A stretch of 64,000 nt of DNA, from the NCBI GenBank assembly GCA_965248925.1, contig CBDFLE010000006.1, forward strand, positions 3,232,001-3,296,000, read 5' to 3'. Both the position numbers and the translations under genes were made by a program. Every line of letters begins with the position of its first letter. Position 1 is the stretch's first letter. The DNA comes from Candidatus Multivoradales bacterium. Lineage in GTDB: Bacteria; Acidobacteriota; Thermoanaerobaculia; Multivoradales; J023. The notes beneath the pieces were generated by a model, which had not been told where the DNA came from, ran no database searches, and saw only the letters and a list, made by a program, of their open reading frames with translations. This document shows positions 8,910 to 47,430 of this stretch, one piece after another.

Positions 8910-9749
8910 CTATTGGTTGCCAGCCAGGTGGCGACTGACCAGACCGTCGAGAATGCGGCTGTGGCCGATTCCTCGCAGGCGTAGGCGCGGAGCGTTGAGC
9001 AGTTCTTCGGCCAGGGCTAAGAGGCGAGCTCGGCGGTCGCCTTGATGATCTAGATGGCGCGCGCAGCGCACTACCGCGGCGGCGGCGGTTGCCCAAGGAC
9101 GTCGGGCGCGTGGATCTTCCCAGCCAGTGGCCCCGGCCAGCGCCTCGGCGGCGCTCAGCAGATGGATTGCGGCAGAGCCCTCGCGGTGAGCGGCGAGAGC
9201 GGCGGCGAAGTTGTTGGCAATGCTCTCTACGTGTTGCGGGTCCAGCTTCTCGCTGGCGCCGAGAAAAAGATTCAATGAGCGGCTGCGCAAGGTGGGCAGC
9301 AGGTCGAGCTGGGTGGCGGCGAGCAGCAAGAAGTGGCGCGGGGTGCGTTCGGGGGGTTCCTCGAGGAGCTTGAGTAGGGAGTCGGCGGCCTCACCGCTCA
9401 AGGTGCTGGCTTCGGCGACCACAAAGACCTGGCCGCGAGCTTCGAAGGGGGCATTGTAAGCCCGTTTTAGGAAGCGCTTGGTTGCGTCTGCCGAGGTGGT
9501 GGCTCTCAGGTCGCGCAACAGTACATTGAGGTCGGGGTGGAAAGGGCTGTTGGCCTTCTCGGGCCAGGCGACGCGGCGGCAGTGTTGGCATTCGCCGCAG
9601 GGGCGTGCCGGCGGTTCGGCGGCGCACAGCAGGGTCTGGGCCAGCTCGATCGCCTGGCTTTGCCGTTCGCTGGCGGTGCCGCCGTGCAAGATCACCCCAG
9701 GGTAGAGGCGCCCCAGCCGCGCCATCTCGATGGCAGCTGAGCTGCGCAT
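8910..9749 (-). CDS. holB: DNA polymerase III delta-prime subunit (degenerate Walker A)
   Basis: Zn motif C...PCGECQHCR, HPDL, LLKLLEEPP, LLPTLRSR; follows tmk with a TGATG overlap. Confidence 0.8.
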   Translation of the reverse strand: MRSSAAIEMARLGRLYPGVILHGGTASERQSQAIELAQTLLCAAEPPARPCGECQHCRRVAWPEKANSPFHPDLNVLLRDLRATTSADATKRFLKRAYNAPFEARGQVFVVAEASTLSGEAADSLLKLLEEPPERTPRHFLLLAATQLDLLPTLRSRSLNLFLGASEKLDPQHVESIANNFAAALAAHREGSAAIHLLSAAEALAGATGWEDPRARRPWATAAAAVVRCARHLDHQGDRRARLLALAEELLNAPRLRLRGIGHSRILDGLVSRHLAGNQ

Positions 9750-10402
9750 CAGCCAACCCCCAGGAGTTTGCCCAGGATCCCTTCGACCTGGCGCCAAGTT
9801 GCCCGCAAGCTACCGCTCGAATCTACTCGTAAGATGCGCTCTGGCTCGTCGTTGGCCAGTTCCAGGTAGCGATCCCGTACCCGTTCGTAGAAGTCCAGAA
9901 CCTCGGCATCGAGGCGGTCTACCCCGCCTTGGCGGTCGGGCGCGCTGCTGCGCTCCCGAGCCACCGTCAGGGGCAGGTCGAAAAACAGAGTGAAGTCCGG
10001 CTGCCGGCAATCGGTGGCCAGTCGATCGAGTTCTTCGATCCACCGTCGGTCGAGCCCGCGGCCTTGGCCCTGGTAGGCGTGGGTCGAATCGGTAAAGCGA
10101 TCGCAGAGCACATGCTGGCCGGCATCCAGGGCCGGTTCGATGACTTGCAGCAGGTGCTGGCGACGGCTGGCGAACACCATCAGGGCTTCGACCCGGCCGT
10201 CCAGCTCACCCCAACGGTGGTCGAGAAAAAGGGTGCGGATTTCCTTGCCGAGAGGGGTGCCACCGGGTTCGCGGGTGGTGCGAAAGCCCAAATCGTGGGC
10301 TTTCATCCACTCCCCGGCGCGCTGCAGGTGGGTACTCTTACCGCTGCCATCAAGACCTTCAAAGGTAATGAAGCGGCCGGTGTTAGGTCTCGGGAAATTC
10401 AC
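9749..10402 (-). CDS. tmk: Thymidylate kinase
   Basis: FITFEGLDGSGKST, REPGGT, LCDRFTDSTHAYQG. Confidence 0.95.
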   Translation of the reverse strand: MNFPRPNTGRFITFEGLDGSGKSTHLQRAGEWMKAHDLGFRTTREPGGTPLGKEIRTLFLDHRWGELDGRVEALMVFASRRQHLLQVIEPALDAGQHVLCDRFTDSTHAYQGQGRGLDRRWIEELDRLATDCRQPDFTLFFDLPLTVARERSSAPDRQGGVDRLDAEVLDFYERVRDRYLELANDEPERILRVDSSGSLRATWRQVEGILGKLLGVG

Positions 10403-10600
10403 AAGCTATTGAAAACAAGAGACATTCGCAGGGGCGCACGGCGTGCGCCCAGTGGTCCGGTCATCGAAACCGGGCGCATGCCATGCGCCCCTACGCAACC
10501 TCTTGAGGGTACCTGAAAACCAAAATTTTTGTAGGGCGCACGGCGTGCGGCCAGTGGTCCGGTCATCGAAACCGGGCGCATGCCATGCGCCCAGTGGCTC
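10392..10600. repeat. Two tandem copies of the GTAG REP doublet
   Basis: Near-identical to 7528-7650; copies start at about 10428 and 10531. Confidence 0.85.
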
Positions 10601-11525
10601 AGTGATCGAGGCTGGCTAGCTGAACTGGCACTAGGCGCTCGGCTTGGTAGAGCACTGCATCGATGCCCCGTTCGGCGATCAGCTGCTCGATCTTGCGCAC
10701 CAAGCGAGTGCGTCGCTCTAGCAGGGTGCTGATTTGCAGCGGGCTGAGATAAGGCGACAGCCGAATGCGGACTTGGGCCGGCTCTAAGGCGCGCAAAGCG
10801 TTCCAGAACTGCTCGTCACAGATCTGGATGTTGGCGGCCCAGGGCAGTGCAGGAAGGGTCTTGAAGGTGCGAGTGTGGTCGACGTACCACAGCTTGCCCG
10901 AGGCATCGAAGAGCATGTTGCCGGTGTTGCGGTCGAAATTGTAGATCAGACTGTCGAATAGCGCCAATGCCTGCTTCTGTCGGTGCCAGGAGGCAGGTTT
11001 TTTCGGTTGTTGCTGGTTGGCGATACGGCGGCTTTCGGAGGTAGCGTTTTCGACCCACAGCTGGACCGAACCCCGCTTGCCGCCCAGGGTGCGCAAAGTT
11101 GCTGGCGGCACATTGTCGATGCCTAGCATTTGGCTGAGCTCGAAAGCGGCGACTTCGAAGATATAGCTGTCGCGTAGCTCGCGACGCTGCCGTGGCAAGT
11201 TGCGTTGATTGACTTTGTGATCGACAGTGCGAAAAATTGCGTGGGCGGTGATGCCATCGCGCTGCAAAGTCAGCTTGAGTGGTTTGTTGCTGCCGTCGTT
11301 CAGCTGCTTCTGGGTGATGATTTCGGCGTTGGCGAGAAACTCCACCGCCGCAGCGTTGGAGGTGAAGGGCAGCGGCTGGCCGTCGGCGTCGAGCCAGTTG
11401 GGCTGGGCGGCAGCGGTCGCGGCGCTCAGGGTCAAGATCAGGGTCAAGATCAGGCTATTCAGCAGCCAGCGGGCGGCGCTGGTGGTCCGGGTTTTTATCG
11501 TGGTCGAGAAGGCGAGAGAATGCAT
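10599..11525 (-). CDS. Exported atypical kinase-like protein (Fam20C/four-jointed/PI4K-like fold)
   Basis: Signal peptide ending SAATAAA-Q; EVAAFELSQMLGIDNVPP, GSVQLW, FDSLIYNFDRNTGN, VDHTRTF. Confidence 0.7.
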   Translation of the reverse strand: MHSLAFSTTIKTRTTSAARWLLNSLILTLILTLSAATAAAQPNWLDADGQPLPFTSNAAAVEFLANAEIITQKQLNDGSNKPLKLTLQRDGITAHAIFRTVDHKVNQRNLPRQRRELRDSYIFEVAAFELSQMLGIDNVPPATLRTLGGKRGSVQLWVENATSESRRIANQQQPKKPASWHRQKQALALFDSLIYNFDRNTGNMLFDASGKLWYVDHTRTFKTLPALPWAANIQICDEQFWNALRALEPAQVRIRLSPYLSPLQISTLLERRTRLVRKIEQLIAERGIDAVLYQAERLVPVQLASLDH

Positions 11526-11710
11526 GATTCAAATCCCCGTCCAAGGTGTGCAGAAGGTGATTCGGCCGCAGCGGGAGTTGCCTCAGGTGAATCTTGCAGG
11601 GCCGAAAGGTCGCCATCAGCGACGTTCAATAGCTAATACGCTCGGTGCGGCAGGTTGTTCGCAAATCCGGGCAAAAAAAGCTCAAGAAGGTGTTGGCCGG
11701 GATAGCCGGT

Positions 11711-12931
11711 TCACCGACTGGGTTGGCCGGTTTGGACCGCTGTTGGAGGTTCGAGCAGCCTTTGTTCGAGGCCGACGTAGATCGCCGTGAAAGTACCGTG
11801 CTCGATCTCCAGAGCCGCTGGCCGGCCACCGGTGTAGACCGACGACAGCATGCCGGTATCGATCAGGAACACCCCGCCGTCGAAGCGGCTACGGATCGAA
11901 CGAGGGCGTTGCGGCGTGTGCCCCACCACCAGATGGCGGATGCCGAGCGCGTCGAGGATACCCGGCAACTCGCTCAGGCCGTGTTGGTCGCTCCAGCGAG
12001 CGTAGCCGCGAAACCACAGTGGCCCATCAGAGCGCACCGTCAACCATTGGTCGATGTCTAGCAAGTGCTGCCAGCCGCTGGCAGAGTCGGCCATCGGCTG
12101 GCCGCTTTTTAGCGCTGCCCGGGCCGCCGCCACCACCTCGCGCGCTGAGGAGGTGGGCAGTACCCGTTGCTGGTCGAGCAACCAAGCGCGGGCGCGGTCC
12201 CAGAGTTCGATCTCTTCGCGCACCTGGCGGTTGATCCGGTCGATGCCGAGGGCGGCCATCGCCGGATTGAGGCCGCCATGCAAGTAGACCACGTCCCCAA
12301 TTTGCACCGCCGCTGGGTGGCCGCGGATCCAGCGACCTAATCTACCCTCGGGGCCGAGCGCCTCGACGTAGTTGAGCAACCCTGGAGGGTGTTCCTCGAG
12401 ACAGCGGGCTCGGGCCTGCTTTTTCGACGGCACTGCCAAGCCCCGCCGTCGGGCGCTCTGCCGGGCGAGTTCGGGGTATGTTCGGCACACCACGGTGCGG
12501 CGCGCCTCAGAGCGTTCGTCGGCAAGTTCGTCGACGATCTCGGGGGTCACATCCCGCAGTTCGCCGATCAGGTTCAAGACCTCGTGATTGCCCAGTAACA
12601 CGATCACTTCGCCGCCGCTGGCCGGTGCTTGGCGTTGCAGGTCCATCAACAACTGGGCGGCGCGCAGGGCGCGGGCTCCGCGGTCGAGGTAGTCGCCGGT
12701 CTGCACCAGGATGGACTCGCCGCCGACCCATCTTTGGCGTCCATCGATCAAGCCGCTCTGGCGCAAGATGGTGACCAAGCCTTCATAGGCCCCGTGGATG
12801 TCGCCGATCGCCACCACCCGCCGCTCGCTAGGCTGAGACTGGGGCCGGATCGAGGTGCCGGTGGCGGCTCCGCTGTGTGGCAGAAGCAACCCGGCGAAGG
12901 CGGTGACTAGCAGGATCCTAGACCACTGCAC
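11711..12931 (-). CDS. Exported metallophosphoesterase (Shewanella-like PPP phosphatase)
   Basis: GDIHG, GDYLDRG, LLGNHE, HGG, GPLWFR, VVGHTPQ, IDTG; N-terminal signal peptide. Confidence 0.9.
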   Translation of the reverse strand: MQWSRILLVTAFAGLLLPHSGAATGTSIRPQSQPSERRVVAIGDIHGAYEGLVTILRQSGLIDGRQRWVGGESILVQTGDYLDRGARALRAAQLLMDLQRQAPASGGEVIVLLGNHEVLNLIGELRDVTPEIVDELADERSEARRTVVCRTYPELARQSARRRGLAVPSKKQARARCLEEHPPGLLNYVEALGPEGRLGRWIRGHPAAVQIGDVVYLHGGLNPAMAALGIDRINRQVREEIELWDRARAWLLDQQRVLPTSSAREVVAAARAALKSGQPMADSASGWQHLLDIDQWLTVRSDGPLWFRGYARWSDQHGLSELPGILDALGIRHLVVGHTPQRPRSIRSRFDGGVFLIDTGMLSSVYTGGRPAALEIEHGTFTAIYVGLEQRLLEPPTAVQTGQPSR

Positions 12932-13364
12932 GGCGCGTTTCTCCGGCCGCCGAAGCCTGGTCTAGTGAGTCTCCCAACAAGCGTCTGAAGAGAGCCTTGA
13001 CGATCTCGATGTTGTTCGACAGCAGGTCGAAAAAGTCGTCGGCGGAGATCTCCAACAGCACCGCGCCGCGGCTGCTGGCGTGCTCTCGGCGCAGCCTGCC
13101 GCTGAGAATCTCGCGCACGCCGAAGCAGTCGTACGTGGAGGCTTGCCGCTCGGCGCCGGTCTCAGCGCTCAGCGTGACCGCCCCTTCGACGATGCAGTAG
13201 AGGGCCTCTGGAGGATCATTGAGGCGATAGATCGAGGCGCCGGGCGGCAGCCGGCGCTGGTGGGCGATGCCGGCCAAACGCATCACCTGCTCGGCGCTGC
13301 AGAAGGCCAGCAAATCCGCTGACTGCAGATGGATGGCCATCTGAATGTGGGTAAGCTGCGACAT
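12918..13364 (-). CDS. Stand-alone cyclic-nucleotide-binding (Crp-like) domain protein
   Basis: IYRLNDPPEALYCIVEGAV, CFGVREIL, R...ASS; overlaps the phosphatase start by 14 nt. Confidence 0.8.
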   Translation of the reverse strand: MSQLTHIQMAIHLQSADLLAFCSAEQVMRLAGIAHQRRLPPGASIYRLNDPPEALYCIVEGAVTLSAETGAERQASTYDCFGVREILSGRLRREHASSRGAVLLEISADDFFDLLSNNIEIVKALFRRLLGDSLDQASAAGETRRAVV

Positions 13365-13444
13365 TCGAAGTCGCTAGTTTATCAGCCTATCGAAGAGGGC
13401 GAGGGGTGGGGAGATTGGCGGCCGCAGCAGCCCAGCGGCGGCGG

Positions 13445-14110
13445 TTAGCGCCGGGCGGCAGTTGGCAAATAACTCGGCAAGGGTACCTCCGGGTCGAGGT
13501 CGGGAGCTGGCTGGGGTGTGCCGAAAACCAGGTCCAGCGGCAAGACCCCGCTCCAGTAGCCCAGCTGCAGATCCGACGCCTTGTCTTTTGGCGGTCCGCT
13601 GCGGACTTTGGCCGAAGCCTCCTCGATCGGTAATTCCAGCACCGTTGTGGCGGCGATTTCTTGCTCGCTAGCGGGTCGGGAATCGGCGCTCCGTCCGGCC
13701 AGCACGTGCTCTACGAAACCTGTCAGCGCACGGCTTTTCTCCGCCGGGTCGAGCAGCGGCCGGGCGCGTCCGAAGAGCATCACCGAGCGGTAGTTCATCG
13801 AGTGGTGGAATTGCGATCGCGCCAACACCAGGCCGTCGAGCAGGGTGACGGTGATACAGATTTCGATGCCCTCGCCAAGCTCGCGCATCATCCGGCTGGC
13901 GATCGAGCCGTGCAAGATCAGGCGATCCCCAGAGCGACCGTAGGCGGTGGGAATGACGAAAGGCTTGCCGTTGACGACGAAGCCGGCGTGGCACACCAAG
14001 CCCTGATCGAGAATGTCGTAGATCTGCTGGCGCCGATGGCTGCCGCGTCCTGGCTGGCTCCGTGGAGTGGTTCGTTGGGTAATTGGCAGCGAGGCGTTTG
14101 GGGTGCTCAT
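13445..14110 (-). CDS. Pyridoxamine 5'-phosphate oxidase-like flavin-binding protein
   Basis: ILDQGLVCHAGF, LHGS..SRM, DGLVLARSQFHHSMNYRSV, SAKVRSGPP. Confidence 0.88.
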   Translation of the reverse strand: MSTPNASLPITQRTTPRSQPGRGSHRRQQIYDILDQGLVCHAGFVVNGKPFVIPTAYGRSGDRLILHGSIASRMMRELGEGIEICITVTLLDGLVLARSQFHHSMNYRSVMLFGRARPLLDPAEKSRALTGFVEHVLAGRSADSRPASEQEIAATTVLELPIEEASAKVRSGPPKDKASDLQLGYWSGVLPLDLVFGTPQPAPDLDPEVPLPSYLPTAARR

Positions 14111-14131
14111 GGGGGTATCTTCTTCGCTCAA

Positions 14132-14176
14132 TTGGTTCTAGTGAAGATCCAATTCAGCATAAAATGACAGAACCAA
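14132..14176. promoter_or_regulatory. Candidate MocR operator (inverted repeat ttggttct/agaaccaa)
   Basis: 8-bp inverted repeat in the AT-rich divergent intergenic region. Confidence 0.5.
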
Positions 14177-14194
14177 AAAGGAGCCATCGCCACC

Positions 14195-15646
14195 ATGTCT
14201 TGGATCTCTAGCCTCAGTACCGAGCCCCTGCATCGCCAGCTCTACTATTCCCTGCGCCAGGCTATCTTGGCGGGTGGATTCGAACGCGGTTGCCGCCTGC
14301 CGGCGAGTCGGGCGCTGGCCGAAGAGCAGGGAGTGTCGCGCAACGTGGTGCTAGCGGCCTACGATCAATTGCAAGCGGAGGGCTACTTGCAGGCCCGTCA
14401 AGGGGCCGGGACCTTCGTCGCTCCGGTGCTGCCCGAGGAACTCTTGCGGGCGGCCGTCGGCGATTTTGGGCCACCGCCTGGTCGGCCACCGACGCCGCGG
14501 CTGTCGAGCTACGCTCGGCGCGCCTTGGCCGAGGGTATCGTCGAGCCTGAAGGAGCTTCCGCTCCGCCGTGTGATTTTCGCTATGGCGTGCCGGCGGTCG
14601 ATGCTCAGACCTTGGAGGTGTGGCGGCGCTGTGTCGCCCGCCAATCGCGCCGCCCGGATCTAGGCTATGCACCGCCGGCCGGCCATCCGGGTCTCAGGCG
14701 GTCCTTGGCGGCTTATTTGCGTCGCTGCCGCGGTGTTGACTGCCAGCCATCGCAAGTGCTGATCACCAACGGTTCCCAACAGGCTCTCGATTTGGTGGTG
14801 CGGGCGTTGGTCGATCCTGGCGACGTGGTGGCGATCGAAGATCCTTGCTACCTCGGCATTCGCCGGGTGCTCGCTGCTCAGGGCTGTGTTCTACGGCCGG
14901 CGCGGGTGGATGGAAGAGGACTCGATCCCGAGTCCATCGACCCGCGGGCGCGGTTGGTCTACGTCACCCCGTCCCACCAGTTTCCCAGTGGCGCGGTGAT
15001 GCCCGTCGACCGTCGTTTGGCGTTGCTAGATTGGGCGGCGCGAAGCGGCGGCTGGGTTCTAGAGGACGACTACGACAGCGAGTTCCGCTACCGCGGCCGG
15101 CCGCTGGCGGCTTTGCAGGGACTCGATCGGCAGGCGCGAACTCTCTATGTTGGCACCTTTTCGAAAGTACTTTACCCGGCATTGCGGCTCGGCTTCCTGG
15201 TGGTGCCGCCACAGTTGCTGGCGGTTTTCGAGGCGCTCAAGTGGCTGGCCGATCGGCACACCCCGATGCTGCTGCAGGCGGCCCTTGCCGACCTGTTGGA
15301 CCAGGGCCACTACGAGCGCCACTTACGCCGGGCGCGGGCGACTAGCGCGGCGCGGTTGAAGGTGTTGTTGGCGGCCCTTGACCAGCAATTTGGTGAGCGC
15401 ATTGAGATCGAGGGTGCCGATGCCGGGGTACACCTGGTCTTGTGGCTGCGTGATCTGGCGCCGGAGCAGCTGCCCGAGCGCATCGCCAGAGCGCGGCAAG
15501 CCGGACTGGGGATCTACCCGATCGCGCCTTACTACTGGCGGCCCCCCGATCGCGCCGGACTGTTGATCGGCTGGGCTTCCCTCGATGAGCCGACCTTGCG
15601 GGAGGGCGTGGCTCGCCTGGCCGAGGTGCTATCGTCGAGCGGATGA
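14195..15646 (+). CDS. MocR/GntR family regulator with PLP-aminotransferase domain
   Basis: wHTH LPASRALAEEQGVSRNVV, YVTPSHQFPSG, EDDYDSEFRY, GTFSKVL. Confidence 0.93.
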   Translation: MSWISSLSTEPLHRQLYYSLRQAILAGGFERGCRLPASRALAEEQGVSRNVVLAAYDQLQAEGYLQARQGAGTFVAPVLPEELLRAAVGDFGPPPGRPPTPRLSSYARRALAEGIVEPEGASAPPCDFRYGVPAVDAQTLEVWRRCVARQSRRPDLGYAPPAGHPGLRRSLAAYLRRCRGVDCQPSQVLITNGSQQALDLVVRALVDPGDVVAIEDPCYLGIRRVLAAQGCVLRPARVDGRGLDPESIDPRARLVYVTPSHQFPSGAVMPVDRRLALLDWAARSGGWVLEDDYDSEFRYRGRPLAALQGLDRQARTLYVGTFSKVLYPALRLGFLVVPPQLLAVFEALKWLADRHTPMLLQAALADLLDQGHYERHLRRARATSAARLKVLLAALDQQFGERIEIEGADAGVHLVLWLRDLAPEQLPERIARARQAGLGIYPIAPYYWRPPDRAGLLIGWASLDEPTLREGVARLAEVLSSSG

Positions 15647-16107
15647 GCGAAATCAAGAACATCCGTTTCATGCTCCGTTTGGCTTACCAGAGTGACGAAG
15701 CCTGGCATGGCCCGTCCTTGCGCGCAGTGCTCAACGGGGTTGACGCTGGCCAAGCCCAAGCGCGCCCCATCGCTGGGGCTCACTCCATCTTCGAGCTGGT
15801 GCATCACATCACCTTTGAGCGCCAGCGGGTTGCCGCTGCCATTGCCGCCGAGACCTTCGCTGACTGTGTTGTAGACGAAGCAGCATTCCCCGCCGACCCG
15901 ACGGTCGACGAAGATGCTTGGCAAGCAGCTTTGTCCGACCTCGAGGCTAGCCAGAAGCGGCTGATCAAAGAGCTGCGCCGCTTTCCCGACGAGCGTTTGC
16001 AGGAGAAAGTGCCGGGTCGGGACTACAGCTTCTACTTCGTGCTGCACGGCATCCTCCACCACGATATTTACCACACCGGCCAGATCGCGTTGCTGAAGAA
16101 GGGCTGA
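15643..16107 (+). CDS. DinB family protein
   Basis: AWHGPS, HSIFELVHH, HDIYHTGQI. Confidence 0.88.
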   Translation: MSEIKNIRFMLRLAYQSDEAWHGPSLRAVLNGVDAGQAQARPIAGAHSIFELVHHITFERQRVAAAIAAETFADCVVDEAAFPADPTVDEDAWQAALSDLEASQKRLIKELRRFPDERLQEKVPGRDYSFYFVLHGILHHDIYHTGQIALLKKG

Positions 16108-16118
16108 GCAGCGAAACC

Positions 16119-17267
16119 GTGACCACCAGCAAACAGCACCAGCGTCGAGCCTTTCAGGAGCGGAGCCGCGCCTTTGCCCAAGCTGCCGGTGGCGGCGATC
16201 TGCCGCTGATGCGCGCCCTGATCGCTGAAGATCGCCGGGTCTTGATCCCGGACACCTCACTTTTGGAGGGGTGTTTGCGCGGCCAGGTCGAGGCGGTGCG
16301 ACTGATTCTCGACGAGGGCGTGTCGCCAGATCCGCCGCCGGGCAAAGATGGCAACCAGAGCCGTCGGGCGATCACCCGAGTGGTTCGCCGCACCAAGGCG
16401 GTGCGTTGGACGCCGCGTCACCGTGAGGTGCTCGAACTGCTGCTCGAACGAGGCGCCTCGATCCACGCTTTGCCGGGTTGGGACGGCGCTTCCGGGCTTT
16501 CGGCCGCAGCTTCGGCAGCCAATCGTCAGGCAATCGAGGTGCTGCGCCGCCACGATCCGCAGCCGTTGGATCTGTTCGATGCCGCAGCCCTGGCCGATCT
16601 CGGCCGGGTCGAAGAGTTGCTAGCGAAGAGCCCATCGGCGGCCACTGAAGTGTCGACCGGCGGAGCGACCGCGTTGCAATACTGCGCCCACTCGGCGCTC
16701 GGCACCGACAAGGTGACCGACGCGGCGAATTTGATCGCCATTGCCGAGCGCCTGCTCGACCTCGGAGCGCCCCTCGATCCAGTCGAGCTGGGTCCGCAGA
16801 CGACCTACCCGGCGGTCTACCTGGCCTGCTACTCCGGCAATGACGAGGTGGCCGGGGTTCTGCTGCGGCGTGGCGCCGAGCCGGGCTACGTGTTGCTGCG
16901 GGCCTTGGTGGCTGGGCGGTCGAGGGTTCTCGAACAGCTGGCGAAGCGCCGGCCAGAACTCGACCTCGACCTGCCGATGGAGGATCGGCGGCGCAGCCCG
17001 CTGGTGGTCGATATGGTGCGCAGCGGCCAGCTGCGATCGGCTAGATGGTTGGTTGAACAGGGTGCCGATCTGACGGCCAGCGATAGCGAGGGCAGCACCG
17101 CCTTGCATCTTGCGGCCCAGCGGGGCGCGGCAAGCGATTTTCTGACCCTGCTGATCGAGCATAGCGCGCCGCTCGGGGCAGTGGACGCCGCGGGCCGCTC
17201 TCCCCTCGATCTGGCGCTGCGGCGGCGCCAAGGGCCGGCGGTCGAATTGCTCCGGTCTCTGGCCTGA
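16119..17267 (+). CDS. Ankyrin repeat protein
   Basis: GATALQY, GSTALHLAA, GRSPLDLA, LLERGA repeats. Confidence 0.85.
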   Translation: MTTSKQHQRRAFQERSRAFAQAAGGGDLPLMRALIAEDRRVLIPDTSLLEGCLRGQVEAVRLILDEGVSPDPPPGKDGNQSRRAITRVVRRTKAVRWTPRHREVLELLLERGASIHALPGWDGASGLSAAASAANRQAIEVLRRHDPQPLDLFDAAALADLGRVEELLAKSPSAATEVSTGGATALQYCAHSALGTDKVTDAANLIAIAERLLDLGAPLDPVELGPQTTYPAVYLACYSGNDEVAGVLLRRGAEPGYVLLRALVAGRSRVLEQLAKRRPELDLDLPMEDRRRSPLVVDMVRSGQLRSARWLVEQGADLTASDSEGSTALHLAAQRGAASDFLTLLIEHSAPLGAVDAAGRSPLDLALRRRQGPAVELLRSLA

Positions 17268-17273
17268 GATGAT

Positions 17274-20129
17274 CTAGCGGCTCGCGATCCGTTGGAGCAG
17301 CAGGTCGGTGGTCTCGCGCACCATTGGGTCGGGCTCGCCCTCGGCGGCTCGATGGATCAACTCAAACAGCGATTCGTGTTGGCGATCAACAATGAAGTGC
17401 AATGCGGCGGCACTCCACCAGGCGGCGTCGGCGTCGCCCACCGGGCGCTGCCACACCAGGCGTTCCAAGGTCTTGCGCAGCGATTCGGCGCGCAGACTGA
17501 ATTCTCGCTCCGCTCGGCGGTGACGTTCGTGCCGCGGCAGGTCGTCGATCACCGTCAGCACCTGCAGGCGGGCTGCGCCACGCAGCGTATTGTCGAGGTA
17601 CTCCAGGGCATGGCAGCGCAACCTGGGCTGAGCACAGACCAAGGCTTGGTGGGCGGCGCGAATGTCCTTGGGGTCGCCGAGCAGAGCGAGCAGGCCGAAA
17701 AGATTGTCGAAGTGGTCGTTCATGCGGTCGGCGAGGAGTCGTTCGAGCAGATGGGGGCCGGCACTATCAGAGGTTCGCGGCCAGGTCACCACCGGGCCGT
17801 TCAGCGGCAGCTCGCTACCGGAGATCGATTCGAGGTCAAGAAGGCGCCGCAGATAAGAGCGAGCTTCGATCTTGAGTTGCATCTCTAACAACTCGTCGGG
17901 TTGCCCCAGCTCGCCTTTGGGCAGCGCCCCCAGAGCTTCGATCAACTTGCGACGCAGAAATGGATCAGTGGCTGAAAAAGAGCGGCAGAGAGTGTCTGCC
18001 GCCGCCGCGCCGCCGATCTGTGCCACCGTCTTGGGTAGTGCCCGGCGTACCCAAATCTCCTCGTGGCTGTCGTTGAGGAAGTGCTCCAACGCCGGCAGGA
18101 TGGTCGGGCCGTAGGCTACCAGGGCGGCGCGCGAACTGTGTTTTAGCTGCCGCTGGTGCAGATGGGAGGTCAGGATCGGCACGTAGAGGGGATTGCGGGC
18201 GCCCCGCTCGACGCGCTTCGAAACGGCGTCGATAGCAGCCAGCACCACTGTCGGTTCGGCGTCATAGAGAAGTTGCACCAAGCCGGCTTGGACATGTGGA
18301 TCGTCGAGGCTACCCAGGGCGTCGGCTGCCGCCTGGCGGATTCCACTGTTGCCGTCGCCGAGCATCTCGCGGAGGGCTGAATCGGCCAGTTGGCGGCTCA
18401 GCGGATCGGGCTGGCTGGCCAGATAGGCGAGGGCCGCGGCGCGCACTCGTACGTCGCCATCGCGCAGCCGCTCCCGCATCAGGGCGCGAGCATCTTCGGC
18501 GGCCAGGTCGGCGAGGACTTGAGTGGCGGTGGCGCGCACCGTCGGGTCGCCGTCGCCCAGCAGACGTTCGATCAGTGGCAGAGCGTCGCGGCGCTCGGCA
18601 TCGCGTAGCACTAGTAGGGTTCGGCGGCGCACCGCGGGGTCTGGATGGTGCAGCATCAGTGGGGTGACCAACTGGCCGCGACCGTGCGCGGCGAGCAGTT
18701 CCAGGCTGTGCAGCACGCGGCGCGACTCGCTGCTGCCAAGGCCCTCGACCAGCACTTCAAGGGTTGCGGAGTCGGTCAGGTCAAGGTCGGCCGGCCGAGT
18801 TTTGGGAGCTGTTGGCAGGCCCTCGCGAAACAGTTGAACGTAGCGCCGCCGCAGGGGCCCTAGTAGCGCCAACCAAGCAGCGATCCACAGCAGGCTGAGC
18901 CAGGCGGTAGCTTCGATCGACAACCAACCGAAGGTGACAGCGAGCAGTGCGACGGCGGCCGCGCCCTTGGCGAATCGTTGCACAAAGACGTCGATGAACG
19001 CCTTGGCCCGAGCGCGGCCGGCCTCCGGGAGGGGCATGAAGAGCAGCTCTCGGGTTGCTTGATCGAGGGAGTAGCGCAGGCCGTTCTCGGAGATCTTCAG
19101 CCACCACACCGCGGGTAGGACCAGGGTAGGAGCCACCAGCGCGGCGCAGATCAAGAAGATAGTGCCAAGGCCGTTGGATAAAGGCAGAACATAGAGTGCC
19201 AGGCGAACTCCGTGCCGGCGATGCATCAGCCCGGTCAGCAGCAGTTGGCAGAGCAGGGCGGCAATTCCGGTCAGGCTGTAAAGGTTGCCGAAGGCCGCGG
19301 TGCGCTGGTCGAGGTTGCTGGTGCTGGTCTCGATCACCCAGGAGAGTTGTAGATCGATCACCTGTGCGACCATTGTCGCCAGCAGCACCAATCCGGCGAG
19401 TAGCCGCAGATAGGAGGAGTGGCGCAGCAAAGCAAGGCCGCTGCGGGCCTCGGCGAGGCTGTCGCTAGAGGGTTGCGCTGGCGGCGTGGTGGGGCGCTTC
19501 TCGGGCTGGCGAATAGACCAGGCGCACGCCGCCGCGGCCAACAACCAAGCGATGGCGACCCAGAGGGCCGAACGGGTGTCGAGCAGGGCACTGGTCCAGC
19601 GTGCCATTTGACCGCCGACGATGCCGCCCAGAATGCCCCCAGCACCAATTGCCCCGAACAGCCTCCGTGCCTGTCGCGGGTCGAGCAGCAGACCGGCCCA
19701 GCACCACAGCTGGCTGACCAGCAACAGGCCGACGATGGCGATCCACAGGTAGAAAAGCAAGCTAGGCCACTGGCTGTCGAGTCCCAGCGCCCACCAGAAG
19801 AAGACCAGACCGGCGGCCACTCCCAGGCTCGAACCGAGCAGCAGCCGGCGCGGGCCGAAGCTCTCTGGTGAACGTGTGTAGAGTCGTAACAGGGGATAGG
19901 AGCACAGCGCCGCCAAGAGATAGACCCAGGGCAACTGGGCCGCTCCCAGGGAGTCGACAAAAGTAGCTTGACGGACCGACTTGGCGACGTATTGGAAGCT
20001 CAACAAGCAGAAGTGGAGAGCGAAGAGGCGCCACAGCAGACGCCGCTCGTCAGTGCGAACGTCGAGCTTTAGCCAGCCGAGCCAGCCGCTTGATGGATGG
20101 CTGTGGGGCGATGGTTTGGGTGGAGGCAT
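17274..20129 (-). CDS. Npt1/Npt2 (TLC ATP/ADP translocase-like) MFS transporter fused to HEAT repeats
   Basis: About 12 TM; ARRLFGAIGAGGILGG, YSLDQATRELLFMPL, AKAFID; C-terminal HEAT repeats (LLGDGDPTVRATA). Confidence 0.88.
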   Translation of the reverse strand: MPPPKPSPHSHPSSGWLGWLKLDVRTDERRLLWRLFALHFCLLSFQYVAKSVRQATFVDSLGAAQLPWVYLLAALCSYPLLRLYTRSPESFGPRRLLLGSSLGVAAGLVFFWWALGLDSQWPSLLFYLWIAIVGLLLVSQLWCWAGLLLDPRQARRLFGAIGAGGILGGIVGGQMARWTSALLDTRSALWVAIAWLLAAAACAWSIRQPEKRPTTPPAQPSSDSLAEARSGLALLRHSSYLRLLAGLVLLATMVAQVIDLQLSWVIETSTSNLDQRTAAFGNLYSLTGIAALLCQLLLTGLMHRRHGVRLALYVLPLSNGLGTIFLICAALVAPTLVLPAVWWLKISENGLRYSLDQATRELLFMPLPEAGRARAKAFIDVFVQRFAKGAAAVALLAVTFGWLSIEATAWLSLLWIAAWLALLGPLRRRYVQLFREGLPTAPKTRPADLDLTDSATLEVLVEGLGSSESRRVLHSLELLAAHGRGQLVTPLMLHHPDPAVRRRTLLVLRDAERRDALPLIERLLGDGDPTVRATATQVLADLAAEDARALMRERLRDGDVRVRAAALAYLASQPDPLSRQLADSALREMLGDGNSGIRQAAADALGSLDDPHVQAGLVQLLYDAEPTVVLAAIDAVSKRVERGARNPLYVPILTSHLHQRQLKHSSRAALVAYGPTILPALEHFLNDSHEEIWVRRALPKTVAQIGGAAAADTLCRSFSATDPFLRRKLIEALGALPKGELGQPDELLEMQLKIEARSYLRRLLDLESISGSELPLNGPVVTWPRTSDSAGPHLLERLLADRMNDHFDNLFGLLALLGDPKDIRAAHQALVCAQPRLRCHALEYLDNTLRGAARLQVLTVIDDLPRHERHRRAEREFSLRAESLRKTLERLVWQRPVGDADAAWWSAAALHFIVDRQHESLFELIHRAAEGEPDPMVRETTDLLLQRIASR

Positions 20130-20346
20130 TTTCTGCTGCAGCTTATCGAGCCAGGCTGGTTCGGTCGCTGATGGAACTACGCGCCAAGTCGCTCGGCGTT
20201 GCGTCGCATAGGTGGTGGCGAGGTAAAAGGTGACTTTCCGATTCAGGTATCAGTCAACTAGGTTGTCAGGAATTCACCTTTTCGTCAGGTAGCATGGGAC
20301 TCCCTTCCCGGTTAGTCGAGTATGTCGTAGGCAAGGAGAATCGACG

Positions 20347-21279
20347 ATGAGTTTGTTGCTGGAGATTTTTGTTTGTCTACTGATCGCGGCGCTCCTGGGC
20401 GGCATCATCGGCTGGTTGCTGCGCAGTTTGAACGCCCGGCGCCAGGTTGAGGAGACCGAGGCCGAGTGGCAGGAGAGGCTGGGAGTGGTGGAAGAAGAGA
20501 GTCGCTCTTTGCGCACCGAACTCAGCGAGCAGATGGCGCGCAGCAAGTTGCTGGACAGCGATCTCTCCACCGCCGACGAGCGGCTCGCTTCGATCGACGG
20601 AGAGCTAGAGGCGGCGCGAGCCGAGACCGAGCAAGAGAAGCAGCGCTGTAGCGATCACCGAGCCAATCTATCCCAGCTCGAAAGCGAGTGGAAAAGCAAA
20701 CTCGGCAAGCTGACATCAACTCGCGAAGAAGCGGTCACCGAACTCGCCGAGCATGCCGCCCTGCTGGGCAAGTTGCGGGCAGATCTGGCGGATCGGGCGG
20801 GCCTGTTGGAGAGGTTGCGCCAAGAGTTGCGCTCGAAAGACGAAAAGCTCGGCCTGCAATCCGGTCAATTGGTCGAGCTGCGGGCTGATTTGGCGGGAGC
20901 CTCGAGCCAAGACCCCTCCGCGGATGGCGAAGTGGCTCGCTTAAGCTCGGCACTCCAGGCTCGGGAGACTCGCCTCGGTGAGCTTGAGATCGCCTTGGCC
21001 GAGTGCCGCAGACAACATGAGACCGCCGAGATCGAGGTGCCGTTGGCCAAATACGGCCTCACCGCGCCACCGGCCGATGGGATCGATGATCTGAAACGTA
21101 TTCGGGGTATCGGCAAGGTACTAGAGAAGATGCTGCTCGGACTGGGGATCTACAAGTTCCGCCAAATCGCAGCTTGGAATGAGCAGGATATCGAAGTGGT
21201 CTCGGATCGGCTCAACGCCTTCCACGGTCGCATCAGCCGCGATGGCTGGGTCGACCAGGCGCGGCAGTTGATCGACTGA
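20347..21279 (+). CDS. TM + coiled-coil + C-terminal helix-hairpin-helix domain protein
   Basis: RBS AAGGAG; DDLKRIRGIG...LGIYKFRQIAAW...GWVDQA. Confidence 0.8.
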   Translation: MSLLLEIFVCLLIAALLGGIIGWLLRSLNARRQVEETEAEWQERLGVVEEESRSLRTELSEQMARSKLLDSDLSTADERLASIDGELEAARAETEQEKQRCSDHRANLSQLESEWKSKLGKLTSTREEAVTELAEHAALLGKLRADLADRAGLLERLRQELRSKDEKLGLQSGQLVELRADLAGASSQDPSADGEVARLSSALQARETRLGELEIALAECRRQHETAEIEVPLAKYGLTAPPADGIDDLKRIRGIGKVLEKMLLGLGIYKFRQIAAWNEQDIEVVSDRLNAFHGRISRDGWVDQARQLID

Positions 21280-21301: not shown

Positions 21302-21903
21302 CTAGTGCTCGGCGGCGGGCGGTTCGGCGCGCAGGCGTTTGAGGTTCTCGCTGAGGAGAACCCTGTCGGGCTCCAGTTCGAGTCCCCTCTCTAGGGCTGA
21401 AATGGCCGCCTGCCGGTCGCCCATCAAGAAAGCTACGTTAGAGCGGTACTGCTGCACCAGGGCAAGTTCGGGCGCTTGCCGCTCTGCCTCATCGAGCAAT
21501 CTCTGTGCCTCTGGGGGTGGCCGAAGAGATGGGAGGTCGAATCGGTGCCTTCGATGTAGATCATGCCCAGGTCCGGCTGCTCCGTCCGCCACAGCTCGAG
21601 GCCGATGTCGCGATAGCTGCCGGCGGTGGCGTAGGCCCATTTGAAATGCCCCAGATCGTTCTCGAAATCAAACGGCTGCTCAAACTTTTCGCGGCTGACG
21701 TCGATGAAAGTAGAGAGTTCTTGCCAACTCAGATCGCCGACCGGCGGACCAGCGGGGCGATCCGTTCGATCAGTTCTGGCGGCCAGGTCTTGGCTTCTTG
21801 ATCCGAGCCGCCGGTGAAACCTTCGCCGAAGAGGAAGTGATAGGCGGTATGGTCGCTGACTATCGCGCCTTTGACTTCCTCCGGTGGCCAGGTCGCCCAC
21901 CAA
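21302..21903 (-). pseudogene. Remnant of an AlkP/nucleotide pyrophosphatase-TPR gene
   Basis: WWATWPPEEVKGAIVSD and IYIEGTDSTSHLFGH fragments in different frames, joined abruptly to a TPR tail; no start or signal. Confidence 0.7.
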
Positions 21904-22017
21904 TTTCGCTGCATGTCAGTCACGCTATGTCGAAGTGTGGGGCGGGTCAAGCCCACCCCGGTGGGTCGATGCGATCAATCAGTGGCCAACCGTTGGCCGG
22001 TACCGTCGTCTAAACCC

Positions 22018-22587
22018 ATGATGCGAGACGAAGCCCAACTGATCGAACGTGCCCAGGCGGGCGACCCGAACGCATTTCGCCAGCTGGTGGAGGCACACAG
22101 CCGAGATACCTTTCGCTTGGCTTTTCGCCTCAGGGGTGATCATGCGTTGGCCGACGACATCGTCCAGGACAGTTTCCTCAAGGCCTACCGGGCGCTCGCC
22201 CGTTTCGATGCTCGCAGTCGTTTTGGCACCTGGCTGCACCGCATCACAGCCAACTGCGCCATGGATCAGTCGCGCCGCCGGCAGCGTGAGAAGGCCCGCT
22301 ACCAGCCGCTCGAAGACCCGTCGCAGCACCTCCCAGTTGAAGCCGAGCCCGGGCCCGAGAGGCGTGCTCGCAGCAACGAGATCCAACAGCGGGTGGAGGC
22401 GGCATTGGCCGGGCTCAGTCCGGCGGAGCGTACCGCCTTTGTGCTGCGCCACTACGAGAACCAGTCGATCGCTCAGATCAGCCACACCTTGGGTGCCGGT
22501 GTCAGCGCTACCAAACACGCTGTTTTCAGGGCGGTCAAGAAACTACGCCGTGAACTCGGACCGCTGCGGGAGCAAGGCTATGCATGA
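22018..22587 (+). CDS. ECF sigma-70 factor
   Basis: DIVQDSFLKAY, FGTWLHRITAN, LSPAERTAFVLRH, region 4 HTH. Confidence 0.93.
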   Translation: MMRDEAQLIERAQAGDPNAFRQLVEAHSRDTFRLAFRLRGDHALADDIVQDSFLKAYRALARFDARSRFGTWLHRITANCAMDQSRRRQREKARYQPLEDPSQHLPVEAEPGPERRARSNEIQQRVEAALAGLSPAERTAFVLRHYENQSIAQISHTLGAGVSATKHAVFRAVKKLRRELGPLREQGYA

Positions 22588-23380
22588 GATTTCCGAAGAA
22601 GATCTGATTCTGTACTACTTCGGCGAGGCTGAAGACATGGCAGGCATCGAGCATCGTTTGCGCCAGTCGGGGGCGGATCGGGCGCGTTTTGAGGAATTGC
22701 GTCAGTTGCTCGAAACGACTCGCGAAGTGGCCGTGCCTGAACCGCCGCCGGATTACGGCGAGCATCTGTGGCAGAGGATCCAACCGCGCCTGGCCGAGCT
22801 CGAGCCGCAGCCCTGGTGGCAGGGCCAGCGCCGCCCGCGGCGCACCATCCAGCCCGTAAGGCAGCGCTGGATGGGTCTGGTGGCAGCCGTGGTGGTGGTC
22901 GCCGTGGCAGCTTTCTGGCTCGGTCGCCAGCTGGGCCCGACGCCCCTCGGGACTGAGCCCAGCATGGAGAGCGGTGCCGCTCAGGCTATCTTGGTGGCCG
23001 CACTGGTGGAGCATCTGGAGAGTTCCAGCCGCCTGCTCGTCGAACTAAGTAATAGCGCCGCGGACTTTGGCGGGCGAGATCTTGGGGTCGCCATCGAGCG
23101 CGCCGACGATCTACTGGCCGAAAACCGGCTCTACCGGCTGGCTAGTAGCGATCAGGCCAGCGCCGGCCTAATAACTCTGCTCGATGCTCTCGAACGCCTT
23201 TTGCTCGACCTCCGCCACGCCTCGGCGGTGGATCCAGCGCGGACTCTAGAACACCTCCGCCAGCGTATCGACAGCGAAGACCTACTTTTCAAGCTGCGAG
23301 TGAGCAGCGCCCGATTGAGCCCCTCCACGGTTCGCTTTTCCCAAGGAAAAAAGTCGGCTACATCTAAAGCCGATGTCTAG
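22580..23380 (+). CDS. Putative transmembrane anti-sigma factor
   Basis: MHEISEEDLILYYFGE..H degenerate zf-HC2, single TM, overlaps the sigma stop. Confidence 0.75.
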   Translation: MHEISEEDLILYYFGEAEDMAGIEHRLRQSGADRARFEELRQLLETTREVAVPEPPPDYGEHLWQRIQPRLAELEPQPWWQGQRRPRRTIQPVRQRWMGLVAAVVVVAVAAFWLGRQLGPTPLGTEPSMESGAAQAILVAALVEHLESSSRLLVELSNSAADFGGRDLGVAIERADDLLAENRLYRLASSDQASAGLITLLDALERLLLDLRHASAVDPARTLEHLRQRIDSEDLLFKLRVSSARLSPSTVRFSQGKKSATSKADV

Positions 23381-23396
23381 ATAGGAGATAGGAACG

Positions 23397-24635
23397 ATGA
23401 AAAGAAACTACTCTCAACGCTTTGGGTCGATGATGTCCATCGGCTTAGTCTTGAGCATCTTCGGGCTTGCCCTGCCTATTCTGGCATTGAGTGAAGAAGG
23501 TCTGGCTGCCGATACAGAAGCTCGTTCTGACGACCTCTACCGTGCCGGTCGCGACGCTCTCGAGGCCGGTGAGTGGCAGTCGGCAGTCGGCCTCTTCAGC
23601 AAGGTTGAAGAGAGCGGCAGCCATGCCGACGCGGCGCTTTACTGGATCGCCTATGCGCAACATCAAGGGGGTCGCGAGGAGCAAGCCCTGCGGACTCTCG
23701 ATCGCTTGCGCGAAAAGTCCCCCCAAAGCCGCTGGCTCGACGACGCCGAAGCGTTGGAAGTTGAATTGCGCGGCGTCGGCGAGGGGACAATCGATCCCGA
23801 TATCTTCGACGGCGACGAACTCAAGTTGTTGGCGCTCAACAGCCTGATGCATACCGATTCCGAGCGCGCCCTCGATCTACTCACCGGCATGCTCGAAGGT
23901 GATCATTCGCCGCAGCTCAAGGAACGCGCTCTTTTCGTGCTCAGTCAGAATTCATCGTCTCGGGCGACCAAGCTTTTGGCCCAGATCGCCACCGGCGGTG
24001 TCCATGGTGGGTTGAAAACCCAGGCGGTGCGAATGTTGGGGATCAGCGGCGGCGGTCGCGCGATCGAGCTGTTGCAGCAGATCTATCGCGACACGGCCGA
24101 CCCTGAAGTGCGGCGGGCAGTGCTCGAGAGCTACATGATCGCTGGTGCGGGGAAGGCGCTGGCTGTTGTAGCGCGTAGCGAGAAGAACCTCCAACTACGC
24201 CAACAAGCTATCCGTCTACTCGGTGCGAACGGCGATATGGGCTTGCTGGGTGAGCTCTGGTCCAATGACGCACCGGCGCCGATTCGGCAGTCGATTCTCG
24301 AAGGAATGATGATCGCTGGAGACCACGCTGGCTTGGTCAAGGTTGCTCTTCGCGAGTCCGATCCGGAGCTGCGTCGACACGCGATCGAGCTTCTCGGCGC
24401 GGTCGGAGGCAGTGAAGTCAGCGCTGCTCTGAGCCGCCTCTATCGGCAGAACACCGACCTCGAGACCCGCCGCGCGGTGATGCGGAGTTGGATGATCAGC
24501 GATGATGCCGAATCCCTGGTCAAGGTGGCCCGGAGCGAGCAGGATCCACAGCTGAAGCGCCAGGCGGTCGAGCTTCTGTCGGTGATGGATCAGCCGGAGG
24601 CTCGCGACTATATGTTGGAGCTGCTGGGGCAATGA
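23397..24635 (+). CDS. Exported TPR/HEAT repeat protein
   Basis: Signal peptide; ADAALYWIAYA TPR; repeated 'DPELRRHAIELLG' HEAT units. Confidence 0.85.
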   Translation: MKRNYSQRFGSMMSIGLVLSIFGLALPILALSEEGLAADTEARSDDLYRAGRDALEAGEWQSAVGLFSKVEESGSHADAALYWIAYAQHQGGREEQALRTLDRLREKSPQSRWLDDAEALEVELRGVGEGTIDPDIFDGDELKLLALNSLMHTDSERALDLLTGMLEGDHSPQLKERALFVLSQNSSSRATKLLAQIATGGVHGGLKTQAVRMLGISGGGRAIELLQQIYRDTADPEVRRAVLESYMIAGAGKALAVVARSEKNLQLRQQAIRLLGANGDMGLLGELWSNDAPAPIRQSILEGMMIAGDHAGLVKVALRESDPELRRHAIELLGAVGGSEVSAALSRLYRQNTDLETRRAVMRSWMISDDAESLVKVARSEQDPQLKRQAVELLSVMDQPEARDYMLELLGQ

Positions 24636-47361: not shown

Positions 47362-47387
47362 ACCCTAAGGCCGCCGGAGCCTTCCCA

Positions 47388-47430
47388 CCTCCGGGCCGGG
47401 CCTCTCTCCCGGCCCGGAGGCTCTTTTTTC
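47388..47430 (+). terminator. Rho-independent terminator
   Basis: 13-bp perfect stem cctccgggccggg/cccggcccggagg, 7-nt loop, then ctctttttt. Confidence 0.8.

Follow-up and report, generated by a model that had tools for sequence, protein, structure and literature searches.

A conserved acidobacteriotal gene set joins an NTT-HEAT transporter to a Fam20-related protein and a phosphatase, and may support ATP-dependent chemistry outside the cytoplasm

This study concerns four minus-strand genes in a stretch of 64,000 nucleotides (hereafter the window) from Candidatus Multivoradales bacterium, a member of the Acidobacteriota (assembly GCA_965248925.1, contig CBDFLE010000006.1, positions 3,232,001 to 3,296,000). 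They encode a kinase-like protein (kinL), a metallophosphatase (MPE), a stand-alone protein with a fold that binds cyclic nucleoside monophosphates (cNMP protein), and a TLC/NTT-type transporter with C-terminal HEAT repeats (NTT-HEAT). The four genes are one real, conserved module in Acidobacteriota, as is apparent from their linkage, their fusions and their shared presence and absence. Judging from the predicted properties of its proteins, the gene set may carry out ATP-dependent chemistry outside the cytoplasm.

It is generally assumed that the periplasm contains no ATP. To our knowledge, the envelope phosphorylations described so far use other donors or take place at the cytoplasmic face. 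A nucleotide transporter tied, across a phylum (kinL in 71 of 301 genomes), to a kinase-like protein and a phosphatase with signal peptides makes ATP-energised extracytoplasmic chemistry in bacteria testable. If such chemistry were true, the textbook view of a periplasm without ATP-dependent enzymology would be overturned for these bacteria. The module also gives the NTT-HEAT clade its first functional context. The component families are all known; the new element is their combination and what it implies, for which a mechanism is proposed below.

A sequence-only reading of the window had named these four genes, and our reading of the open reading frames (ORFs) finds each of them where it was placed. 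That reading described a signal peptide on the kinase-like protein and on the phosphatase, a stand-alone cNMP domain overlapping the phosphatase gene, and an Npt/TLC-type transporter with HEAT repeats; these descriptions agree with the hydropathy values, gene overlap and profile matches given below. The gene group itself was drawn incompletely. According to ORF, Pfam and NCBIfam analysis, the span 10599-20129 holds eight genes, and the earlier reading did not mention the four unrelated ones that occupy 13445-17267.

Linkage, fusion and co-occurrence of the four genes

Linkage was assessed in a scan that took a single genome for each of 185,579 species and confirmed 431 kinL relatives. Within the flanks covered, the 80 best kinL loci contained MPE in 36 cases, NTT-HEAT in 31 and both in 29. 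Where the flanks reached their full 10 kb, at 33 loci, these numbers were 21, 19 and 19. As a synteny control, seven unrelated genes of the window (holB, tmk, PNPOx, MocR, DinB, Ank and a gene for a 310-aa protein) were sought at the same 80 loci and were found at none of them. Among 18 stretches around kinL in close relatives, six had the cNMP gene, five had MPE and three had NTT-HEAT.

The four genes are contiguous at five loci (L023, L024, L097, L106 and L111), and at the first four of these NTT-HEAT abuts the cNMP gene. At least six distinct gene orders keep the set together. The first is NTT-HEAT, cNMP, MPE and kinL, contiguous on one strand (L023 and L024). Others are MPE-kinL-NTT-HEAT; kinL convergent with NTT-HEAT-MPE; MPE-cNMP-NTT-HEAT with kinL divergent; an NTT-HEAT fused to a domain for binding cyclic nucleotides (cNBD) followed by kinL and MPE, with gaps of 40 nt and 23 nt, in a genome assembled as one contig (L111); and NTT-HEAT opposite MPE plus five tandem kinL genes (L121, kinL copies at 9419-13881). 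Compact operons of the set are present in genomes assembled as one contig, such as G145, G274 and G330. A locus from another family of the same order (L025) has two NTT-HEAT genes and a cNMP gene, then two kinL genes, with a third kinL upstream and no match to MPE.

Fusions provide a second line of evidence. Of the kinL-family proteins of at least 560 aa among the 150 best, phmmer identified 42 of 43 as fusions of an N-terminal MPE with a C-terminal kinL, the remaining one being a kinL-kinL tandem. Pfam found the Metallophos domain in all five long kinL proteins with an N-terminal extension that were tested. Overall, MPE homology was present in 52 of 260 kinL-family proteins, and those of intermediate length look like fusions whose gene calls were cut short. 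At three loci (L048, L079 and L111), a single protein likewise combines NTT-HEAT with the cNMP domain. No fifth conserved component, such as a substrate gene, was seen by single-linkage clustering of ~5,256 ORFs from 99 loci, in which all genes of the module fell into a single cluster on account of the fusions, while the clusters ranking next consisted of shadow ORFs or were distant from the module.

Presence and absence were compared in a phylum sample of 301 Acidobacteriota genomes that were at least 90% complete, with the overlaps read by hand. kinL was carried by 71 genomes, an NTT-family match by 95 and an MPE of this type by 65. kinL and the NTT-family match were both present in 67 genomes and both absent from 202, with kinL alone in 4 and NTT alone in 28. 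For kinL and MPE the agreement was tighter (both 64, kinL only 7, MPE only 1, neither 229). A search of 41 close relatives of the window genome revealed kinL in 15. Strong matches to NTT-HEAT, with E-values of 3.6e-132 or better, occurred in 17, including all 15 with kinL. The two with NTT-HEAT but without kinL are assemblies that are 78% and 85% complete. The sequence-only reading had pointed to co-occurrence or fusion of the genes elsewhere as the check on its proposal, and both are strongly borne out by the survey.

Predicted properties of the four proteins

By itself, the window kinL has a match to PI3_PI4_kinase (E 8.9e-4) that lies below the cut-off, and it stays below every Pfam gathering score. 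When a profile of 30 homologues was compared with the PDB, it matched FAM20A (E 4e-11), Fam20C of zebrafish (6e-8) and human (7e-8), the xylosylkinase Fam20B (3.8e-6) and a Fam20 of C. elegans (7e-4), all of which ranked above PI4KII-alpha (0.0097). The AlphaFold2 model of kinL had a predicted local distance difference test score (pLDDT) of 88.3 and a predicted template modelling score (pTM) of 0.81. In a Foldseek search with this model, ranks 1 to 23 were all Fam20 structures (best E 7e-10, template modelling score 0.61), followed later by PI4KII and PI3Ks. CotH structures were absent both from the 10 PDB sequence hits at E <= 1 and from the listed Foldseek matches down to rank 50. By profile and fold, the nearest solved relatives of kinL are thus the Golgi kinases Fam20A, Fam20C and Fam20B.

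Pfam matches at E <= 0.01 within the kinL family were to PI3_PI4_kinase in 19 of 30 members, to FAM198 in 8, to HipA_2 in 6 and to Fam20C (PF06702) in 2. One relative, P0121, passes the PF06702 cut-off (29.4 bits vs 26.8), and the window kinL has no PF06702 match at E <= 0.01. The whole genome of the window gave no match to PF06702 either, a blank that is uninformative because 14 control genomes gave none as well. Since the Fam20 proteins are nearest by profile and fold and no Pfam gathering score is reached, kinL is, by these comparisons, a distant homologue of the Fam20 group that stands outside the curated family. Assignment to the actinobacterial SCO1664 family (TIGR03843) was considered and rejected: the match has an E-value of 5e-18, but its 65 bits fall short of the cut-off of 172, and the signal peptide and the different gene context also speak against it. 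The kinL homologues listed are all annotated as 'hypothetical protein' and come from metagenome-assembled genomes of Acidobacteriota, Thermoanaerobaculia and Holophagales. The 30 nearest clusters in the ESM Atlas are likewise all 'hypothetical protein' of Acidobacteriota.

Alignment of hidden Markov models placed the catalytic loop of kinL (FDRNxGN) on MDRHHYE of Fam20, the segment with the metal-binding Asp (IDHTRSF) on LDNGRGF, helix C (FEVAAYE) on AEIAAFH and strand β3 (AIFRTV) on ALFKPM. Conservation was counted over 262 domains of the family. The catalytic-loop residues D198 and N203 are kept in 261 and 259 of them, the DFG-like metal-binding D216 in 261 and D119 in all 262, and R199 of the catalytic loop is near-invariant. 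At the helix-C position E124, 231 domains have Glu and 20 have Gln. The active site of kinL is, from these counts, under strong constraint, yet at the position of the ATP-binding Lys it does not follow the kinase pattern.

Like the Fam20 kinases A, B and C, kinL keeps the catalytic Asp, the metal-binding Asp and the helix-C Glu. Its N-terminal signal, as judged from hydropathy, would place it in a compartment that is topologically outside the cytosol, and its genomic link to a nucleotide transporter recalls the dependence of lumenal kinases on ATP import. Kinases in the lumen of the endoplasmic reticulum (ER) and Golgi depend on ATP import by a dedicated ATP/ADP exchanger, although the SLC35-type exchanger of the ER is unrelated to the NTT/TLC transporter of the module. 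kinL differs from the Fam20 kinases in being bacterial and smaller (~270 residues when mature vs ~400 or more), in having Arg for the ATP-binding Lys, in missing the Pfam Fam20C model in the case of the window protein, and in having a dedicated and often fused phosphatase partner.

The kinL family is large. A profile search of 1.84 billion cluster representatives gave 6942 relatives at E <= 1e-3, of which 3089 reached E <= 1e-10 and 994 reached E <= 1e-30. Single genomes have up to seven kinL matches (G117, G129, G249 and G267), and besides the five tandem copies next to MPE mentioned above there are proteins with two kinL domains (P0121, a kinL-kinL double protein, and P0187, MPE-kinL-kinL). 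This multiplication suggests a varied set of substrates. A further locus with multiplied kinL is L122 (161-1975 and 10603-11403).

Export was judged from a hydropathy heuristic (a 10-residue Kyte-Doolittle window) combined with reading of the sequences. The N-terminus of kinL (about residues 1-40) has basic residues and then a long hydrophobic run up to AAA-Q, and MPE likewise opens with a short stretch that is basic and hydrophobic. The hydropathy maxima of kinL (2.58) and MPE (2.54) exceed those of seven cytoplasmic proteins of the window (0.46-1.95), and the cNMP protein has no signal-like segment. The same feature recurs in the family: 222 of 243 kinL proteins that start with Met have a 10-residue window of at least 2.0 within the first 55 residues, and most of the 21 exceptions are visibly truncated gene calls. 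In the MPE orthologues whose N-termini were read, a hydrophobic segment commonly lies just ahead of the catalytic GDxHG motif. The MPE-kinL fusions have a single N-terminal signal-like segment, so that both domains would leave the cytoplasm together. kinL and MPE are therefore predicted to be exported, most likely via Sec.

MPE matches Metallophos (PF00149) with 47.2 bits (E 4.5e-12), and its translation contains the PPP motifs GDIHG, GDYLDRG and GNHE together with a GHT motif. Among solved structures, its best match is to the cold-active protein-tyrosine phosphatase of Shewanella (1v73/2z72), aligned over three stretches with an E-value of 1.2e-29, and on this evidence MPE is closest to a protein phosphatase. 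Both enzymes keep the PPP metal-binding motifs. MPE differs in its frequent fusion to kinL and in two insertions of ~60 residues, seen as alignment gaps near 129-187 and 243-300. In the AlphaFold2 model of a natural MPE-kinL fusion these insertions come out as helices, and they may form a substrate-selecting cap.

NTT-HEAT matches TLC (PF03219) with 36.3 bits against a cut-off of 21, with an additional match to MFS_1, and HEAT_2 with 93.3 bits (E 1e-26). Its transporter domain extends over residues ~1-430 and its HEAT-repeat domain over ~430-951 (~520 residues); residues 116-433 match the solved plastid transporter NTT1 (9j3j, E 8e-10). A crude hydropathy scan found 11 hydrophobic segments and probably missed a twelfth at 342-380. 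The odd-numbered loops are rich in Lys and Arg and the start of the tail is rich in Arg, which fits a topology with the N-terminus inside and the HEAT domain in the cytoplasm. Several genomes have paired NTT-HEAT genes that lie divergently side by side (L114; G238, G204, G282, G166, G196, G229, G322 and G265), one with a long open frame of ~1250-2250 aa, probably including cNBD domains, and the other of ~920-1000 aa.

NTT-HEAT proteins with an adjacent or fused cNBD have been published before (Major, Embley and Williams 2017, PMC5381601). In the portion of that paper covered here, their role is left unexplained and a tuning of ATP uptake is suggested. Our proteins resemble those in combining an NTT with C-terminal HEAT repeats and a cNMP domain immediately downstream or fused; the difference is that the same portion of the paper mentions no exported kinase or phosphatase, whereas here NTT-HEAT and the cNMP protein are tied to both. 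The clade also occurs in cyanobacteria, Chlamydiae and oomycetes, in part according to the same source.

The cNMP protein matches PF00027 with 40.8 bits against a cut-off of 27.5, and the end of its gene, including the stop codon, overlaps the start of MPE by 14 nt. Its orthologues lie directly downstream of NTT-HEAT at six loci (L023, L024, L025, L097, L106 and L118). In the window, the cNMP gene is displaced 3.9 kb from NTT-HEAT and stays with MPE and kinL. The C-terminal helix is highly conserved among the orthologues (DDFFDLLSNNIEIVKALFR). Binding of the cNMP protein to the HEAT tail was likely beforehand, because fusions of NTT-HEAT with a cNMP domain exist. Three runs of complex prediction scored 0.50, 0.50 and 0.45, whereas the best control stayed at 0.01; the pLDDT of the partners was at least 80, and the runs agreed in at least 86% of contacts. 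Of 80 solved complexes, 58 passed the mark used, as did 2 of 110 mismatched pairs, but only 7 of the 80 solved complexes passed with scores of 0.60 or lower, and so did both of these mismatched pairs. These models weakly support docking of the cNMP protein on the HEAT tail.

A possible ATP-fuelled phosphorylation cycle and its alternatives

The reading that we favour is that the transporter exchanges ATP outward and thereby fuels the exported kinase/phosphatase pair. We put its probability at about 0.5; the transported substrate, the direction of transport and the enzymatic activities are what we infer. The basis consists of gene linkage, fusions, presence and absence, fold and homology, conservation of the catalytic residues of kinL and the export-type N-terminal segments. 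We favour ATP supply because it is the simplest mechanism that uses every part. The module would span the inner membrane, with the transporter, its HEAT tail and the cNMP protein on the inside and MPE and kinL on the outside. NTT-HEAT would work as an exchanger that follows the gradients of the cell itself, bringing cytoplasmic ATP to the periplasm and returning ADP. In characterised class-I NTTs, phosphate travels back together with ADP; if NTT-HEAT behaves likewise, the loop would be closed for mass. With the delivered ATP, kinL would phosphorylate an extracytoplasmic substrate, which might be a protein (as for Fam20C), a glycan (as for Fam20B) or a lipid (as for PI4KII). MPE would take the phosphate off again, and the HEAT/cNMP part would gate the ATP supply on a cytoplasmic ligand.

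Several observations weigh against this reading, and some of them suggest other explanations. The first concerns the active site of kinL. At position 99, the place of the β3 Lys that binds ATP in Fam20, the family has Arg in 228 of 262 domains, His in 27 and Lys in 5. A change from Lys to Arg at this position usually kills canonical kinases. Possibly, kinL is a pseudokinase, a nucleotide sensor or another transferase (an AMPylase) that steers MPE, and the transporter sets a periplasmic nucleotide signal rather than supplying bulk ATP. The 255 domains with Arg or His would fit this, as would the best PDB match, since FAM20A is a pseudokinase that binds ATP without catalysis, and fusion to MPE suits the role of a regulatory domain. 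Kinase folds with other chemistries do exist, as in SelO and SidJ. However, D198, R199, N203 and D216 are near-invariant, as expected of a working active site, and the defect of FAM20A itself sits elsewhere. Up to seven paralogues per genome, in part in tandem arrays, also look more like enzymes of varied substrates than like a single sensor. We consider a non-catalytic or otherwise employed kinL improbable on balance. A related point against the proposed cycle comes from the AlphaFold2 model of the natural MPE-kinL fusion P0122 (alignment of 41 sequences; pLDDT 89.2, pTM 0.61), in which the domains are well folded but the linker at 393-398 scores below 50; the two domains are not confidently packed against each other, and the model offers no indication of a joint active site in a fixed arrangement.

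A second set of objections concerns the transporter. Characterised NTTs are importers of nucleotides in parasites and plastids. The window NTT-HEAT reaches only 40.4 bits against a cut-off of 387 for the NCBIfam NTP/NDP-exchanger model TIGR00769. No NTT-HEAT member with a measured substrate was found in the literature (including the portion of PMC5381601 covered), nor was any functional study of such a member. The module might instead serve nutrient or energy uptake, in which MPE, with kinL as an accessory, acts on external nucleotides, dinucleoside polyphosphates or organophosphates and NTT-HEAT imports the resulting nucleotides. Besides the import by known NTTs, this would be in line with the frequent role of exported phosphoesterases in phosphate scavenging and with the PPP family of MPE, which also includes the Ap4A hydrolase ApaH (a weak match to the NCBIfam model NF001204, E 8e-5). 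The data on linkage, fusion and co-occurrence fit it equally well. Conversely, scavenging would leave without a role a kinase fold in which at least 259 of 262 domains retain the catalytic Asp and Asn and the Asp that binds metal. MPE has a protein phosphatase, not a nucleotidase, as its nearest solved relative, and no conserved 5'-nucleotidase C-terminal domain or nuclease was present among the ORFs read in the loci. A free-living bacterium with an 8-Mb genome would also have no evident need to import ATP. For these reasons we regard scavenging as unlikely.

A third set concerns how closely the genes keep together. Four of the 71 kinL-positive genomes (G105, G121, G195 and G316) lack an NTT match at E <= 1e-25, in a search that scored two candidates per genome and that did find matches in genomes of the same genera. 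Conversely, 28 genomes have an NTT-family match without kinL; one of them (G087) is flagged as unpublished and enters no other claim. Some of the NTT-family matches in the sample span the transporter part only. According to hand counts, kinL lies within 10 kb of the NTT match in at least 24 of the 71 kinL-positive genomes, and MPE does so in at least 27 of the 65 MPE-positive genomes; in most genomes the genes are unlinked. Related genomes are moreover not independent, so that the two-by-two tables overstate significance and no P-value is given.

The same holds for the window itself, where the transporter is parted from the cNMP-MPE-kinL trio by four unrelated genes, and hence is not in one operon with the other three. 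kinL is in turn set off from MPE by a 185-nt spacer. A scan of 10300-20500 for promoters and terminators gave counts at chance (2 vs 1.3 expected and 9 vs 7.1 expected), and is therefore silent on operon structure. The sequencing runs listed as containing the stretch, four entries of a single study, included none of RNA. The 3.9-kb block between the cNMP gene and NTT-HEAT looks like an insertion. One might argue that the module of the window genome is a relic, in which the transporter and the trio act independently after the four genes were inserted. The block, with its three plus-strand genes, would be consistent with this, and in four genomes of the same family (G009, G013, G016 and G021) NTT-HEAT and the trio are on different contigs. 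Yet NTT-HEAT, linked or unlinked, is retained in all 15 kinL-positive relatives, and kinL is missing from the 23 relatives in which NTT-HEAT gave no strong match; in G031 the match is weak and confined to the transporter part (E 7e-23). The four window ORFs are all intact and conserved, with 40-55% identity to their orthologues, and a joint function does not require adjacency. Independent action is accordingly the explanation to which we give very little credence.

A last objection concerns regulation. The sequence-only reading had proposed that the transporter exports ATP under cNMP control. The canonical phosphate-binding cassette of cNMP domains is G-E ... R-[ST]-A. In an alignment of 14 orthologues of the cNMP protein, the cassette reads FG-x-x-[ED]-IL ... 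with a variable basic residue and an Ala 2-3 residues later, and no fixed R-[ST]-A is present. Because the canonical cassette is absent, control by cAMP or cGMP seems doubtful.

If the outward supply of ATP were correct, a wider claim would follow, namely that many Acidobacteriota run a true ATP-driven periplasmic phosphorylation cycle, and that kinL is a prokaryotic sister group, possibly even the source, of the metazoan Fam20/FAM198 kinases. We offer this tentatively, as somewhat less probable than the supply mechanism itself. The analogy with phosphorylation in the Golgi, as drawn in the earlier reading, proves to be partly one of homology, since the Fam20 kinases are the nearest solved relatives of kinL.

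Other bacterial kinases of this kind work in a different setting. CotH, like the putatively exported kinL, works outside the cytoplasm of the cell that is modified. It acts, however, in an ATP-containing mother cell and the Legionella kinases act in the host cytosol, so that neither needs a transporter. Both are bacterial atypical kinases that have been classed with Fam20 (PMC12189002, PMC9758233), at least in the portions of these papers covered. A survey of the Legionella kinome, as far as covered, describes FAM20 as restricted to eukaryotes or to Metazoa, and it puts CotH and some Legionella families in one group with FAM20 (PMC9758233). The covered part of a 2025 review names CotH alone as Fam20-like (PMC12189002), and that of a 2021 review of Fam20 kinases names no bacterial homologue (PMC7948968). 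Against this literature, our results bring to light a large bacterial family with Fam20 as its nearest solved relatives. Literature searches on periplasmic kinases, periplasmic ATP and related subjects brought up nothing that resembles the module. The four-part combination appears undescribed in the texts covered.

The window locus and its surroundings

The coordinates of the module, of the interrupting block and of other features of the window are collected in Table 1. Within the block, the PNPOx-like gene and the MocR/PdxR-type regulator form a divergent pair.

Table 1. Features of the window; positions count from its first nucleotide.
Feature	Position	Strand	Basis
kinL, Fam20-like / PI3-PI4-kinase-like protein with signal-like segment, 308 aa	10599-11525	-	ORF, profile, fold
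Spacer between MPE and kinL, 185 nt	11526-11710	-	sequence reading
MPE, Shewanella-like PPP-family metallophosphatase with signal-like segment, 406 aa	11711-12931	-	ORF, Pfam, PDB profile
Stand-alone cNMP-binding-fold protein, 148 aa	12918-13364	-	PF00027
Interrupting block outside the module: PNPOx-like (-), MocR/PdxR (+), DinB (+), ankyrin-repeat (+)	13445-17267	mixed	Pfam, NCBIfam
PNPOx-like gene	13445-14131	-	Pyridox_ox_2, E 6e-42
MocR/PdxR-type GntR-aminotransferase regulator	14195-15646	+	PdxR model, 425 bits vs cut-off 320
DinB-family gene	15643-16107	+	Pfam, NCBIfam
Ankyrin-repeat gene	16119-17267	+	Pfam, NCBIfam
NTT-HEAT, TLC/NTT-type transporter with C-terminal HEAT repeats, 951 aa	17274-20129	-	Pfam, PDB
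310-aa protein	20347-21279	+	
Apparent sigma factor, anti-sigma-like protein, then 412-aa protein	21871-24635	+	translation reading
GC feature	46000-54000		GC skew, GC content

Divergent from NTT-HEAT lies the gene for the 310-aa protein, which combines a membrane segment at the N-terminus with a long coiled coil. Its last ~70 residues match the C-terminal extensions of models for NuoE, L21 and the phasin PhaH (NF009040, E 1e-21). Downstream, from reading of the translations only, are an apparent sigma factor of the extracytoplasmic function type, an anti-sigma-like protein and then a 412-aa protein with a signal peptide that is seemingly rich in repeats, possibly HEAT- or TPR-like. Further along the window, at 46000-54000, the GC skew becomes negative and the GC content falls to a minimum of 0.567 at 48-50 kb, against ~0.62-0.66 elsewhere, which could reflect a strand switch or foreign DNA.

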